The notes under the pieces were generated by a model, which had not been told where the DNA came from, made no database searches, and saw nothing but the letters and a program-made list of their open reading frames with translations. Source: Chloroflexota bacterium (GTDB lineage: Bacteria; Chloroflexota; UBA11872; UBA12225; JAJDUF01). Taken from it: 64,000 nucleotides of DNA. The stretch is taken from contig DAOUJP010000007.1 in NCBI GenBank assembly GCA_034422515.1, forward strand, positions 21,175-85,174, written 5' to 3'. Positions 35,901-40,429 of this stretch are shown here, piece by piece (within the stretch, counting starts at the first letter, position 1; every line of letters begins with the position of its first letter). Position numbers and translations under genes: made by a program.

Positions 35901-36128
35901 ATGAGCGAGTTCGTAATCTGTATCAACAATGACGGCAACCCGGCGAGCCTCATCGTGGGCAAGGTGTATCGCACGCTGTCGGACCCGGCTGCGGAAGCAC
36001 ACCACATGCTCCGCGTGATTGACGAGGACCGGTCGGAGCCTGATGGCTACCTCTACCCGGTCGCAATGTTCGCCCCCATAGAGTTGCCGGAAGTGGCAGA
36101 ACGGGCACTGCTGGCGGCAGGCGGCTGA
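35901..36128 (+). CDS. Small conserved-type hypothetical protein (75 aa)
   Basis: FVICINNDGNPASLIVGKVY...LRVIDED...YLYP pattern resembles a widespread small uncharacterised family (from memory); start trimmed to ATG 35901. Confidence 0.7.
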   Translation: MSEFVICINNDGNPASLIVGKVYRTLSDPAAEAHHMLRVIDEDRSEPDGYLYPVAMFAPIELPEVAERALLAAGG

Positions 36129-36205
36129 GGCCAGTTGAAGTTCCTGAGACCTCGTCCGGTGTTTGCATCGCCTGTCATGAGACTGTCGCCCCAGTCAGAC
36201 GCTCC

Positions 36206-37006
36206 CTATCTAGGGGCTTTGCGGCAGAAGAACAGCAATTCGCCGGGATAGACTGATCCGAATTCCTCGTACCGATAGCCAGCGTAGAGGTGCTCGACGA
36301 TGAAGCCACAGCGCGCCAGTAGATGCTCGGCCTCGTAGCGGAAGAGGTAGCGGTACGGGAGCTGCTGCGTGAGGTGCTCATGCCGACCATCGGGATGAGT
36401 GACGTGGTAGCTGCGTTCAACGTGCTCTATCTGCTGGACACGGTCATGGCTCCTGTCCCGACCGCGAATCTCCACGTGACGCCCACTGGGTAGTGGGAAT
36501 GGCGGCTCCACGGTATGCTCCTCACCTTCAACCGCGGTAGCCAAGTCGCCAAGGCCGGGGTTGCGTAGGTCGAGGACGAACCGGCCATCGTCCCGCACAT
36601 GACGGTGGACGCAGCGCAAGCACGCGATCTGGTCTACGACAGTTGCCAGATACGAGAAAGCGTGCCACGGTGCGATGACGAGAGCGAAGGTCTGATCCAA
36701 TACGAAGGCGGTTATATCTCCCTCGACCAGCGCTACTCTCCCCCGTACTGCCGCTGATTCCGCTCGCAGCTTGTCCCGGCAGCGGTCGAGACTGGCCGGC
36801 GAGACATCCAGCCCGGTGATCGGTACGCCTGCTCTGGCGATAGCCAGCAGCACGCGGCCAGTGCCGCAGGCCAACTCCAGCACAGGGCCGCCCGACTGGC
36901 GACCCAGCCCTATGTAGAACGGCAGATCATCAATCTTCTGCGGCGCCCAATCGGCGATCTCGGCGAGCAGCGGGCCTGTCCTGGCGTGAGGGTTGTCGGT
37001 GCTCAT
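36206..37006 (-). CDS. Class I SAM-dependent methyltransferase
   Basis: VLELACGTGR motif I; ITGLDVS; LVEGDI. Confidence 0.9.
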   Translation of the reverse strand: MSTDNPHARTGPLLAEIADWAPQKIDDLPFYIGLGRQSGGPVLELACGTGRVLLAIARAGVPITGLDVSPASLDRCRDKLRAESAAVRGRVALVEGDITAFVLDQTFALVIAPWHAFSYLATVVDQIACLRCVHRHVRDDGRFVLDLRNPGLGDLATAVEGEEHTVEPPFPLPSGRHVEIRGRDRSHDRVQQIEHVERSYHVTHPDGRHEHLTQQLPYRYLFRYEAEHLLARCGFIVEHLYAGYRYEEFGSVYPGELLFFCRKAPR

Positions 37007-37118
37007 CGGTCTGCGTCTGCGGAGAGATTATGTCGTGCGAGGTAGGTCATAGTTTCGCTCATGCATGTGGTTGTATCCCGGGGGCTAGTAGCTCAATCTC
37101 GCGCTGACTGCCGGTGCT

Positions 37119-38444
37119 CTATGCGCCGCTGTACGTTCCCAGCGCCTCGTGCGCGGCGCACTCCAGATCATAGACCCGGCGAATACGCTGCTGGAGATCG
37201 GCCAGCAAGTGCTGGCTCTCCGTGGCCGTGAGCGGGAAGTCGTCGCGTGCCGCCTCCTGTAGCTCGTCGAGGCGGGTCCAGATGCATTTGATCTCCTCGG
37301 TTGCCGCGGCACCCTCGGACAGTAGCAACGCCTCTTTCTGGGCTATGAGTTCCTTGGCCTGGCGGCACGCCGGCACGTCGTCGGGCAACGCGGCGCTCGC
37401 TATGTCGCTCCAGCCCTGCCCTAGCTCGGCGTAGCGTGCGGCGAGTTGGCGTAGCGCGTCGTCGCGCAGCGCGTCGGCAGCTTCGGCAAAGAAGTCGGCA
37501 TACAGCGGCCGCAGCAGCCCGCCGCCGGTGTGCTGGTGCTCGATACAGTCGTAGACCCAAGTGAGCGCGAACCAGAGGCGGTGGCCGGGCGGAAAGAGCC
37601 GCGCCCAGCTTTGCTTGCTCTGGCTGCCGTGGATGTTCGCGGCCCACGTCTTGAAGGCATCGAGCGTGAAGTTCTTGATGCGCTGCCGTGCCAGCCCCTC
37701 GTAGCAGGCCCGTATTCCCGCGTACACGGCCGTCCGCAGATCGAGTTGTTGCCCAGGCGCCACGGTCATGATCCGGTGCTTCTGTTTCTTGATCCGCGCG
37801 CGAGATGCCGCCAGCTCCGCGGCCGTGATCTCGACCGGCTCGTCCAGCAGATCGCCGAGCAGCGCGTGAGCCTCGCCGAGGCGATAGACCGTCACGACAT
37901 GGTAGTCGCCGCCACTCCAGTAATCGGGCAGCCCGCGGTACGGCAGGTGGGCGCTCGCTACCCAGGCCAGCACCGGACCGCCCGCCGCGAGCGCGTCGGC
38001 CAGCTGCTTGACGGCCGTCTTGGCTCCGCCGGTTTCCTTGAACGTAGCCGTCACGCCGAACCGCTGCGCGGCCCGGTCCAGATAGGTGTGGTTGTTCTGC
38101 CAGAGGTGACGTCCGGCGATATAGAAGCTCGCAAAGTCGTGCGCCTCGTAGAAGAAACTGAAGACGCCCGCACCAATCCCCCCGCCGATACCGAACACCA
38201 TCGGCTCGCTGAAATACTCGCCGGTGTGGGGCGCCCGCACGTCCGCATTCGCCAGCAGGATACGTAGGGCGGTCGTCTCCGGGTGGATGCCCGGAAAGTG
38301 CAGCCGGCCCGGTGGTAGAGGTGCCGTGTCGGAGGCGCTGTCCGCGGGGGCGCCGACGATGTGGCGGCGAGCGGTAGTGTAGCGTTCCCCGGTCTGCGCC
38401 ATCCGGGCGCGGATACGCTGCTTGAGGTGCTTTTGCTTGGTCAT
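37119..38444 (-). CDS. BtrH_N/DUF4872-like (papain-like fold) protein with a basic N-terminal domain
   Basis: MTKQKHLKQRIRARMAQTGERYTTARRH leader; GIHPETTAL; SEPMVFGIGGGIG; YHVVTVY; GGGLLRPLYADFFAEAA. Confidence 0.75.
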   Translation of the reverse strand: MTKQKHLKQRIRARMAQTGERYTTARRHIVGAPADSASDTAPLPPGRLHFPGIHPETTALRILLANADVRAPHTGEYFSEPMVFGIGGGIGAGVFSFFYEAHDFASFYIAGRHLWQNNHTYLDRAAQRFGVTATFKETGGAKTAVKQLADALAAGGPVLAWVASAHLPYRGLPDYWSGGDYHVVTVYRLGEAHALLGDLLDEPVEITAAELAASRARIKKQKHRIMTVAPGQQLDLRTAVYAGIRACYEGLARQRIKNFTLDAFKTWAANIHGSQSKQSWARLFPPGHRLWFALTWVYDCIEHQHTGGGLLRPLYADFFAEAADALRDDALRQLAARYAELGQGWSDIASAALPDDVPACRQAKELIAQKEALLLSEGAAATEEIKCIWTRLDELQEAARDDFPLTATESQHLLADLQQRIRRVYDLECAAHEALGTYSGA

Positions 38445-38620
38445 CGCTGAAACCTCTTCTCTGGAGAGCAGCCCGGCCCCTGCGCCGCCAGAGCTACCCC
38501 GGTGAGAAACGCTCCAACAACCACCGTAGGCTCGAGGACACCAATCCCCTTTGCCCTCGCGTGTGCCGGACAGCGCAGGTGCCCGGTCAGAGGGTCAGGC
38601 GTGAAACCCCGCCACAGCCA
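38445..38620 (-). ncRNA. Putative structured 5' leader RNA (unnamed)
   Basis: Minus-strand helices CCCUC/GAGGG enclosing CCGGGCA/UGUCCGG, then GGGGA/UCCUC, then CUAC-GGUG/CACC-GUAG, directly upstream of the start codon. Confidence 0.45.
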
Positions 38621-38672
38621 AGAGTACCCGAACCGCTCTACGCCGGCAAGCCTCCTGGACAAGAGGCCGCCG

Positions 38673-39251
38673 TTAGGGTGAGGTGGCCGGCGGCGCTTGC
38701 TTGGGGGCGTTATCTTGGCCTGGTGTCCCAGCAGCCTGCTGCCAGCGGCGCCGACTGATCCGCATCCGCTGACCACCCTGCGGCAACCGCGTCGTATCGG
38801 AGTAGTAGCCGGCGGCGCGTAGCTCCTGGTAGATGACCGGGAGCACGGGTGTCGCGTCGGGGCGGTCGTGAATCCAGACGATGAGTGTCACCTCTCTGGA
38901 GACCTGGTCCAGCACGTGCCGGATACGGGTGGCGAGCTTGTCCGTGGGCACGTCCCGCAAGTCGGCGGTCAACTCGACCTCGGGGTCCCAGGTGAGCGCG
39001 CGGGGCGCTGCCGCCGGTTGGCCCGCCATAGCCGGCTTGGTGGGTGGCGCCGCCACGACCGGCGGCGCGGCCGGGCCAACCGGCCCGGTGCCCGCGCTTG
39101 CGCTACGGCCGCGCCGCCGCCGAGAGCGCCGCCGCCGGCTCGGTCGCGGCGGCTGGTTGGCGTTTCCCGCCGGGACGGATGGTGGTGCGGTCACCGGTGT
39201 CTCTCGCTGGCGCTGGTTGTCGGTGCCGGCCGCGGCGCTCATCTCGTTCAT
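38673..39251 (-). CDS. Hypothetical protein: Pro/Arg-rich disordered N-terminus plus small alpha/beta C-terminal domain
   Basis: RRRRSRRRRGR tract; globular segment LTWDPEVELTADLRDVP...MRISRRR; GAGAGAG upstream. Confidence 0.6.
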   Translation of the reverse strand: MNEMSAAAGTDNQRQRETPVTAPPSVPAGNANQPPRPSRRRRSRRRRGRSASAGTGPVGPAAPPVVAAPPTKPAMAGQPAAAPRALTWDPEVELTADLRDVPTDKLATRIRHVLDQVSREVTLIVWIHDRPDATPVLPVIYQELRAAGYYSDTTRLPQGGQRMRISRRRWQQAAGTPGQDNAPKQAPPATSP

Positions 39252-39682
39252 GCTGCTCTCTCTCGATCATCAGGACTGCACCATCGCGTCCGTCCGCTTG
39301 TGTCGTCCTGGCATGTCATTGCTCACAGTGCCGCCTACCGCAGGCAGACCGGGCCGGGGGAGGACGAGCAACGCGCCGGGCGAACGGGGCGATGTCCCCG
39401 GCCTCGGCTACCGTAGAATGTGGTAGGTAGTGGGGATTGTCCGGTCAGCAACCGGCTCCGCGCGGAGGGCCGGCTGCGCCCTGACCACCAAGCCAGGGCT
39501 GCACCACCTATTTCCAGCGGATTGTGCGGACCTGGCGTGTCACCCCTTAGTATACGCCAGCGCCCCGGTGCTTCCGGCCATTATTATAGGGGCCAGTGCT
39601 ATGGGAGACCTTTGCATACCCCCCGGATGGAGTACTAGGGCGGCAGTGCCACTTCCCGACAACCTGGGAGGGCCGATTTTTA

Positions 39683-39706
39683 GATTCCCGCTTTCGCGGG
39701 AATGAC
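39683..39706. repeat. REP-like ATTCCC-N8-GGGAAT palindrome (reverse orientation)
   Basis: GATTCCCGCTTTCGCGGGAATGAC is the reverse complement of 53556-53579. Confidence 0.8.
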
Positions 39707-39784
39707 GAGTTACGCAATGGTCTCTATGGGGAGTGGGGAGCCTGACCAGGGTAGGTAGTAGGTAGACGAGTGGAATACGCCACC

Positions 39785-39812
39785 GTGGGGGCACGTCATG
39801 CCGTGCCCCTAC
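39785..39812. repeat. GTAG-type REP palindrome
   Basis: GTGGGGGCACGTCATGCCGTGCCCCTAC, an imperfect palindrome related to 13711-13744. Confidence 0.7.
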
Positions 39813-39889
39813 CATGGTGGCAAAGGGCGTGGGCACCCTCCGGCAACCAACCCCAGTCAGAAGTGGGGGCAGGGCCGTATCCAAGTAGT

Positions 39890-40429
39890 TCAAGTTGATG
39901 CCGGCTTGGCGTGCAGCACGACGAGTTCATCGTCGCGGGAGACGTTTTGGCCCGGTTGTACCGCGACCCGCTCGACGGTGCCGGGATAGGGCGCCGCGAT
40001 ACTGCTCTCCATCTTCATCGCTTCGAGCACCACCAGTGCTGCTCCGGTGGCTACCTCTTGCCCTGCCTCCACCGCTACGGACACCACCCGGCCCGGCATT
40101 GGCGCCCGGATGGTCTGCTCTCCTTGCGTAGTCGTCGAGCGCGTGCCGGCCGCCCGGAGTGCAGCCGTTAGCGGGTCCTCGATCCGCACGATGGCGAGGT
40201 GGCTGTCCACCGACACGGCCAGCTGCCCGTCGGACAGTGGCGTGATGGCAAGCTCGTAGGCCCGGCCGTCTACCAGCAGCGTATAGTGGCCGGCCGCAGC
40301 GGCTCGGTCCGAACTCACCGCGTGCAGCGTGGCGGGCACCGCCTCACCATCCACCTGCACCGCCGGCGGCGCGCCCGGCTCGACCTCGATCTCCCACTGT
40401 CGGCTGCCGATTTCGACCGTGAATTGCAT
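39890..40429 (-). CDS. Biotin carboxyl carrier protein of acyl-CoA carboxylase
   Basis: IRAPMPG and EAMKMES biotinylation motif. Confidence 0.92.
   Translation of the reverse strand: MQFTVEIGSRQWEIEVEPGAPPAVQVDGEAVPATLHAVSSDRAAAAGHYTLLVDGRAYELAITPLSDGQLAVSVDSHLAIVRIEDPLTAALRAAGTRSTTTQGEQTIRAPMPGRVVSVAVEAGQEVATGAALVVLEAMKMESSIAAPYPGTVERVAVQPGQNVSRDDELVVLHAKPAST

Follow-up and report, generated by a model that had tools for sequence, protein, structure and literature searches.

The gene described here lies on the minus strand of a 64,000-nucleotide stretch of a Chloroflexota genome (assembly GCA_034422515.1, contig DAOUJP010000007.1, positions 21,175 to 85,174), which we call the window and in whose numbering positions are given. 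It is an open reading frame (ORF; 37119-38444) encoding a BtrH_N/DUF4872 protein of 441 amino acids with the N-terminus MTKQKHLKQRIRARMAQTGERYTTARRH, and all features of the gene and of its upstream region are read on this strand. The protein starts with a short basic peptide, termed the tag in the following, and the gene is preceded by a leader RNA of ~170 nt that extends from the predicted start of the transcript up to the nucleotide preceding the AUG (38445-38616) and has a conserved bipartite fold. Judging from the comparisons below, the promoter, the leader and the first ~31 codons look like a cassette of ~300 bp that heads the gene, and this cassette has the appearance of a movable, self-regulating expression unit that occurs on unrelated proteins in several phyla.

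The 5′ part of the leader is a domain consisting of the helices P0, P1, P2, P3 and P4 (38527-38620), which is the single match in the genome to a covariance model, R1 (90.3 bits, E-value 1.7e-20). The 5′ strand of its helix P0 is GGCG (38610-38613), which pairs with CGCC at 38598-38601; the latter is followed by the conserved junction nGAC, and this segment is invariant in alignments A2 and A9. P0 is 99.1% pairable and nearly invariant, with two double changes only, and its GGCG/CGCC sequence could alternatively be read as an inverted repeat in the DNA. Because the 5′ strand of P1 (UUUC, 38603-38606, pairing with GAGC at 38530-38533) sits in the loop of P0, the 5′ domain is itself pseudoknotted. 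All four pairs of P1 show double changes, and the pair at columns 16 and 96 of alignment A2 covaries between four combinations (GC 21, CG 18, UA 14, AU 5). In P2, where CCCUC (38590-38594) pairs with GAGGG (38554-38558), 99.8% of the cells are paired and four of the five pairs have undergone double changes. The hairpin P3 (38566-38586), with the arms CCGGGCA and UGUCCGG, has double changes in seven of seven pairs, and its loop CCUGCGC (38573-38579) is complementary to a segment further downstream (38479-38485). The near-invariant AAAGGGGAU and the P4 hairpin (GGGGAU/GUCCUC; together 38534-38552) form a pair of sequences resembling a Shine-Dalgarno (SD) and an anti-SD element. This segment is invariant among BtrH-type leaders, and covariation of P4 emerges when further protein families are added, with AU changed to GC in 40 cells. 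The conserved junctions of the domain are CGCC-nGAC and GG-YAAAGGGG.

A first reading of the region, made from the sequence only, had proposed several helices in front of the gene. This is borne out not by single-sequence folding, in which 251 nt fold no better than shuffles (z = -0.66) and which is uninformative in GC-rich DNA, but by comparative covariation. In a comparison with 80 orthologue loci, a conserved block of 74 nt was seen at 87-160 nt upstream of the start codon of 64 orthologues. The identity of this block is 70-92%, and mostly 75-88% outside the genus, as compared to ~50% for the proteins, and the block is seen in Chloroflexota, Acidobacteriota, Gemmatimonadota, Planctomycetota and one metagenome-assembled genome (MAG) from Bacteroidota. 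RNAalifold applied to 61 copies of the block returned four helices with 22 pairs, 15 of which are compensatory. In an alignment of 91 leaders that was built with the R1 model and spans four or more protein families, 94.9% of the cells were paired as opposed to 74.0% in shuffles, and the covariation score of 0.583 (0.216 when shuffled) was reached by none of 500 shuffles, while controls with slid pairing partners gave 0.09-0.19. Double changes were found in 19 of the 22 pairs across these 91 leaders. The conserved and covarying structure that the sequence-only reading had expected in front of other tag-bearing genes is thus present. The same reading had suggested comparing the leader to Rfam, and no Rfam 15 family matched it: cmscan of positions 36000-40000 with permissive filters (E ≤ 10) gave no match in 38445-38620 and three chance-level matches elsewhere. 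By these comparative criteria, the leader at these coordinates is a conserved structured RNA, and like known riboswitch classes it combines a covarying, aptamer-like structure in the 5′ untranslated region with an expression platform.

This platform is the 3′ domain of the leader, in which an outer arm around the AUG is followed inwards by an anti-SD/SD pairing, an inner stem and an apical loop with the consensus GCGYRGG. The 5′ strand of the outer arm, GGUGGUUGUUGGAGCG (38510-38525), pairs with 38439-38452 including the AUG; the arm is seen in the folds of 68 leaders, and UUGUUGAU/AUCAACA is its counterpart in other phyla. The adjacent anti-SD UUUCUC (38504-38509) pairs with GAGAAG of the Shine-Dalgarno sequence GAGAAGAGG (38453-38461), which is paired with a mean probability of 0.78 across the 68 leaders, and of 0.75 for the leader of the window. 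The anti-SD/SD pairs differ by clade (CUUCUC/GAGGAG, CUGUUCC/GGAAAGG and others). MAFFT combined with RNAalifold did not recover the long helices of this domain, owing to indels, and it was assessed by per-sequence folding and duplex tests. On this basis, it is strongly supported that the leader sequesters the SD and that the ribosome-binding site is closed in the predicted fold.

The two domains are linked to each other. The apical loop of the 3′ domain contains the heptamer GCGCAGG (38479-38485), the exact complement of the P3 loop, which gives a loop-loop interaction of 7 bp. Complementarity over all seven positions, counting Watson-Crick and GU pairs, is found in 85 of 90 leaders, and strict Watson-Crick pairing over all seven in 69 of 90, the latter as compared to 4.9% when P3 loops from other leaders are scored in the same strict way. 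There are at least 11 compensated types of this contact, for example CCUGCGC/GCGCAGG, CCUACGC/GCGUAGG, CCCCAGC/GCUGGGG and CCACCGU/ACGGUGG, and in the predicted ensembles of the 68 leaders the heptamer is unpaired with a mean probability of 0.73. A pairing of the P3 loop with a nearby GCG had also been considered, and was dropped since the contact with the 3′ hairpin is far better supported.

Directly behind the leader follow the start codon and the tag, MTKQKHLKQRIRARMAQTGERYTTARRHIVG (38352-38444, residues 1-31), and then a disordered linker rich in Pro, Ala and Ser (38301-38351, residues 32-48) that is variable in alignments. AlphaFold2 predicts two helices only for the tag, one comprising residues 3-18 and the other residues 22-31, and no β-strand, whereas the predicted local distance difference test score (pLDDT) of the linker falls below 50 at residues 35-42. 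The basic helical segment and Pro/Ala linker of the sequence-only reading are thus confirmed. The tag is conserved across orthologues, and its entropies at codon positions 1, 2 and 3 are 0.47, 0.29 and 1.15, respectively; therefore, selection on the tag acts at the level of the peptide and not of the RNA. Thr2 is invariant in all cassettes, with all four codons in use, and removal of the initiator methionine would therefore expose an N-terminal threonine in every tagged protein.

A profile of 33 columns made from the tag was searched against 1.84 billion representative proteins, and it matches 3,530 clusters at E ≤ 1e-3, of which 288 remain at E ≤ 1e-10. The best 150 matches are proteins of 36-498 amino acids that carry the tag nearly always at residues 1-32, and they fall into at least 14 unrelated clusters with respect to the body of the protein. 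The tagged bodies include BtrH_N/DUF4872, DUF4287 with AHSA1/SRPBCC, WD40, PG_binding_1, Peptidase_M1 and FGE-sulfatase. The tag by itself has no match in Pfam or NCBIfam, and its profile finds a chance match only among the sequences of the Protein Data Bank (PDB). Descent of the tag from ribosomal protein bL34, which a RARM..G..RR likeness had brought up, was rejected, as hhalign against Pfam Ribosomal_L34 and the L34 of related genomes gave a probability of 0.4% over 5 columns.

The RNA and the tag occur together almost without exception. In the source genome, the RNA and the tag are each present once, at the ORF described here. In searches that started from the RNA, 401 Chloroflexota genomes yielded 17 strong RNA matches and 17 strong tag matches in identical places, and both RNA matches in 301 Acidobacteriota genomes as well as all five in 301 Gemmatimonadota genomes precede a tagged ORF, such that 24 of 24 strong matches in ~1,000 genomes of three phyla stand before a tag. 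The leader was thus found only in front of tag-bearing genes, as would be expected of an autogenous leader that binds a protein. The converse search, on metagenome contigs, used the tags of non-BtrH proteins and gave 80 loci, 77 of them with enough upstream sequence; the RNA is present on the correct strand in 76 of these 77, and ends 70-90 nt before the tag. The bodies encoded there are BtrH-like proteins (26), DUF4287/AHSA1 proteins (25), a family of 373 amino acids without a Pfam match (20) and one singleton. In five of five tagless orthologues, the RNA is absent. From these comparisons, the RNA tracks the peptide and not the enzyme. The sequence-only reading had placed the tag on many unrelated proteins, often with a similar leader in front. 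The profile search and the locus scans confirm this, and the proposal of a portable RNA motif with a portable tag is strongly supported across at least four protein families and several phyla.

The known range of the cassette comprises at least Chloroflexota, Acidobacteriota, Gemmatimonadota, Planctomycetota and Bacteroidota as well as very GC-rich soil metagenome contigs. Across it, identity has fallen to roughly 55-75% for both the RNA and the tag, and approximately one in a hundred cassettes is uncoupled; this near-total coupling despite the divergence argues for a functional link between RNA and tag. One Chloroflexota genome (G333) has three full cassettes on different genes (L095, L100 and L101), namely on two BtrH-like paralogues and one DUF4287/AHSA1 protein, in addition to a weak fourth tag (L123), and cross-regulation between its cassettes would be possible. 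A further cassette heads a BtrH-like gene of Planctomycetaceae bacterium SH139 (CP197414.1, 7195289-7202668), which, given its complete genome, its strain designation and the lack of a MAG label, we take to be a cultured strain. Two weak R1 matches (L098 and L099, E ~0.004) have neither a tag nor the core of the motif and were discarded as false.

The cassette probably has a promoter of its own. A −10-like hexamer, TACTCT (38621-38626), places the predicted start of transcription just upstream of P0, and 59 of 89 leaders have a TANNNT sequence that starts 12-13 nt before the conserved GGCG, as compared to only 22 other, scattered TANNNT matches across the 55 nt between −60 and −5. Since this box stands at a fixed distance, the RNA is predicted to start at the motif. 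A weak candidate for a −35-like hexamer, TTGCCG (38644-38649), can be read from the sequence 17 nt upstream of the −10-like box. There is no sequence conservation upstream of the −10-like box, and a strict sigma-70 scan called no promoter in the window, the −35-like hexamer included.

How might RNA and tag work together? We infer that the basic two-helix tag, being flexibly linked to the rest of the protein, recognises and binds the folded leader on its own transcript, and that it may also bind the leader of any further cassette that the cell contains. The closed state would be stabilised in this way, such that each tagged protein would repress its own translation. The SD-like strands (GAGGG, GGGGA) and anti-SD-like strands (CCCUC, UCCUC) of the 5′ domain could swap with the real SD and anti-SD, and such an exchange of strands, in a 5′ domain that has come apart, would lead to the open state. 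Autogenous translational repression by binding of the tag to its own leader, with stabilisation of the SD-closed state, is the simplest and the most likely of the mechanisms considered, with our confidence in it evenly balanced. More tentatively, the cassette may be a plug-in expression governor of less than 300 bp, in which any fused ORF would be made self-limiting by a promoter, by an RNA operator shutting the ribosome-binding site and by a peptide repressor that the first 30 codons encode. It would spread by recombination between gene families and phyla, and in cells with several cassettes, cross-talk between tags and leaders would link unrelated proteins into one feedback set.

Several observations weigh against autogenous repression by the tag. 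No relative of the tag was detected among the known RNA-binding domains in Pfam, NCBIfam and the PDB, and a multi-helix junction with invariant single-stranded bases is as much aptamer-like as it is like a protein-binding site. The duplex energies of the SD arms are only moderately better than those of shuffled arms (mean z -1.33). The joint absence of RNA and tag is weaker evidence than it may seem, because the two are adjacent and one deletion explains each co-loss. Furthermore, one tag has no leader at all: at locus L185 (metagenome contig Ga0190275_10085147, tag at 1501), which encodes a DUF4287-like body, another gene ends 45 nt before the ATG of the tag. Two other tagged genes have a shortened (L116) and a diverged leader (L118), respectively. 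With regard to the co-losses, two separate deletions of leader and tag had been considered for a tagless close relative (L007), and the idea was dropped, as the alignment is compatible with a single deletion.

The shortened leader of L116 (genome G101; ~70 nt upstream of the tag ATG, locus 1501) keeps GGCGG/CCGCC, GAAC and CCUCC...GGAGG, and is devoid of P4, P1 and the entire 3′ domain; the 3′ strand of P2, GGAGG, lies 9 nt before the AUG and is the Shine-Dalgarno sequence itself. The body that follows has 301 amino acids and no Pfam match.

The same observations can be arranged differently. The leader might be a riboswitch, or a sensor of a small molecule, an ion, temperature or a trans-acting factor, while the tag would serve some other purpose, for instance by docking the proteins to the nucleoid, the ribosome or a partner that they have in common, or by marking them for degradation or processing, and the two would travel together because recombination acts on the cassette as a whole. 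The junction with its invariant unpaired bases, the pseudoknot-type contacts and the sequestered SD would all suit such an RNA, as would the one tagged gene without a leader. However, the downstream genes (BtrH-like, DUF4287/AHSA1, WD40, PG-binding, M1 peptidase, FGE-sulfatase and unknowns) have no common pathway, and it is the tag that is common to all; the pathway sharing of a riboswitch class was not found among the at least four body families of the metagenome loci and the at least 14 clusters of the best tag matches. A rate of uncoupling of ~1/100 at 55-75% identity would also be hard to explain without a functional link, and we consider this a real but clearly minor possibility. A different role for the tag is conceivable even if it does bind the leader, in that it might act positively, or only in cis during translation: the nascent tag would capture the leader and close it after the first rounds, thus limiting the burst, or keep it open as a positive feedback. 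The co-occurrence of RNA and tag would be the same, the tag emerges first and on a flexible linker, and a default fold that is closed needs an activating event. On the other side stands the three-cassette genome G333, which would allow action in trans, and on the whole we find the idea unlikely.

It could also be the DNA that is recognised. The tag might be a small DNA-binding module akin to ribbon-helix-helix (RHH) or helix-turn-helix (HTH) proteins that represses its own promoter via the inverted repeat GGCG-N(10-12)-CGCC just after the start site, with the RNA fold as an independent second layer. This would account for a GGCG/CGCC that is nearly invariant and not covarying, as an operator would be, and that adjoins the −10-like box, and the helix-Gly-helix of the tag resembles helix A, turn and helix B of an RHH protein. 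Yet two changes in P0 are compensated, the sequence upstream of the −10-like box is unconserved, and the tag matches no RHH or HTH family in Pfam, NCBIfam or the PDB; it consists of two helices only, without a β-strand, and is ~10-15 residues shorter than an RHH module. Recognition of the DNA thus appears quite unlikely. Finally, the conserved block upstream of the gene might encode a small peptide or upstream ORF, as the SD-like AAAGGGGAU is followed by NUG 3-4 nt further on. Here all four bases occur at position N, with CUG and also UUU among the variants, and no reading frame is conserved, while G-U pairs and compensatory changes define the helices on one strand only, which renders a coding function so improbable that it hardly needs to be reckoned with.

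Repression by the tag would have precedents in autogenous translational operators, such as the leaders of the ribosomal proteins L20, S15 and L1, of threonyl-tRNA synthetase, and of RegA and gp32 of phage T4 or the MS2 coat protein. There as here, the gene of the binder (here proposed) has in front of it a structured 5′ leader that either contains the SD or governs it, and pseudoknot-type folds, of which there is one here too, trap or exclude the ribosome. In these systems, however, RNA binding is the dedicated task of the entire protein, whose normal target is mimicked by the operator, whereas in the present case a peptide of 30 residues is carried by unrelated enzymes and, together with the promoter and the RNA, travels as a single unit across gene families and phyla. 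Short basic helical peptides that serve as N-terminal RNA-recognition elements, as proposed for the tag, are known from the arginine-rich pairs of lambda and P22 N peptide with boxB, HIV Tat with TAR and Rev with RRE. These peptides bind simple hairpins or internal loops in antitermination or export and are not known to head large numbers of unrelated proteins or to regulate the translation of their own genes, and Pfam and PDB searches showed no sequence similarity of the tag to them.

Riboswitches that sequester the SD, for instance those for purines, share with the leader a multi-helix junction with invariant nucleotides, a long-range loop-loop helix and a buried SD. They differ in that the leader has no match in Rfam 15 and that the genes behind it lack a metabolic theme and have an N-terminal peptide in common. 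Feedback of a product's N-terminal peptide on its own mRNA is also the principle of tubulin autoregulation, where the nascent MREI peptide is read by TTC5; this system is eukaryotic, relies on mRNA decay mediated by a trans factor at the ribosome and lacks a structured leader, and can serve as an analogy only. We found no description of a leader-tag cassette in the literature searched, in Rfam or in Pfam.

The leader RNA would be a new, widespread and elaborate family of cis-regulatory elements with at least six helices and a covarying loop-loop contact of 7 bp. Its defining partner is a peptide and not a pathway, which offers a hypothesis for an orphan structured RNA, namely that the coding sequence of its ligand lies 85 nt downstream. 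Should the tag bind the leader, the cassette would be a natural, minimal and transferable module for autoregulation, of interest for RNA-protein recognition, for synthetic biology and for the question of how gene control evolves when cassettes are shuffled. The tag also annotates the first ~30 residues of several thousand clusters of hypothetical proteins. Experiments appear feasible with the cassette of strain SH139.

As for the protein that is the cargo of the cassette in the window, its tag and linker are followed by a papain-like BtrH_N domain (37884-38285, residues 54-187; Pfam E-value 4.6e-16), a DUF4872 domain (37380-37805, residues 214-355; Pfam E-value 1.3e-20) and a long C-terminal helical hairpin that extends to the stop codon (37119-37373, residues 358-440, with helices 358-401 and 407-440 in the AlphaFold2 model). 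The sole match in NCBIfam is a sub-threshold one to the BtrH-related acyltransferase DarH. The AlphaFold2 model, built with 66 orthologues as input, has a pLDDT of 92.2 and a predicted template modelling score (pTM) of 0.91, and shows the tag, the disordered linker, a papain-like α/β domain and a helical domain with the terminal hairpin in this order. Foldseek against the PDB found AziU3/U2 (E-value 2e-8) and the papain-like ligase CtaG (E-value 3e-6), and further matched CcbD and C39 peptidase domains. Pfam, AlphaFold2 and Foldseek thus agree on the bipartite fold of BtrH/CtaG-type transacylases, with a papain-like N-terminal and a helical C-terminal domain, a fold in common with BtrH, CtaG, AsbE, CcbD and AziU3/U2 (PDB 8GS1, 7WUW, 9QVJ, 7YN1; PMC12865890). 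Neither the N-terminal tag nor the leader RNA is found in the enzymes of this type that have been described.

CtaG, BtrH and AsbE have a Cys-His-Asp triad in common, which in CtaG is C11/H128/D144 (PMC12865890). In the protein of the window, the nucleophile site reads H54-P55-E56-T57, positions 1-2 of Pfam BtrH_N being aligned to H54-P55, such that Pro55 (codon at 38280-38282, within the BtrH_N domain) takes the place of the catalytic Cys11 of CtaG and the triad is incomplete. In the alignment of the 66 orthologues, this proline is at least 90% conserved. His182 (codon at 37899-37901, in the motif YHVV of the same domain) and Asp198 (codon at 37851-37853, just beyond the Pfam match) are kept and invariant in these orthologues, and their spacing of 16 residues equals that of H128 and D144 in CtaG. 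The sequence-only reading was right to note HPET in place of HCE alongside a retained histidine. Its further suggestion of an inactive peptidase acting as a ligand binder holds in so far as the cysteine is replaced by proline family-wide; against inactivity speak the invariant His and Asp and the fact that AziU3/U2 is the nearest solved fold. AziU2/U3 and CtaG are described as similar in structure and unrelated in function (PMC12865890), and for this reason the loss of the cysteine need not imply a loss of catalysis. By its sequence, the cargo is a Cys-less (Pro55) branch of the BtrH/CtaG/AziU3 fold. A second BtrH_N-like gene in the same genome, which is untagged (contig C24:41769-42161, locus L230), has no leader motif; it carries a cysteine at Pfam BtrH_N position 2 (GPYCYANS), and the His and Asp that follow are kept.

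The genes on either side appear not to belong to the unit. The methyltransferase at 36206-37006, which the sequence-only reading had considered as a possible part of it, is rejected, since it is absent near all distant orthologues, and the Arg-rich protein encoded upstream is likewise set aside, being conserved in the genus only. Both are neighbours within the genus only, the methyltransferase in just a few genomes, and neither is seen near distant orthologues; no conserved carrier-protein or biosynthetic context was found in this comparison, which covered only the two adjacent genes and included no wider survey of gene clusters. The methyltransferase (minus strand) matches a model of daptide-type methyltransferases of ribosomally synthesised and post-translationally modified peptides with an E-value of 8.4e-30 and 104 bits, below the cut-off of 175. 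The upstream gene (38673-39251, minus strand) encodes 192 amino acids without a match in Pfam or NCBIfam; its product contains the tract RRRRSRRRRGR, and it ends 24 nt before the −35-like box.

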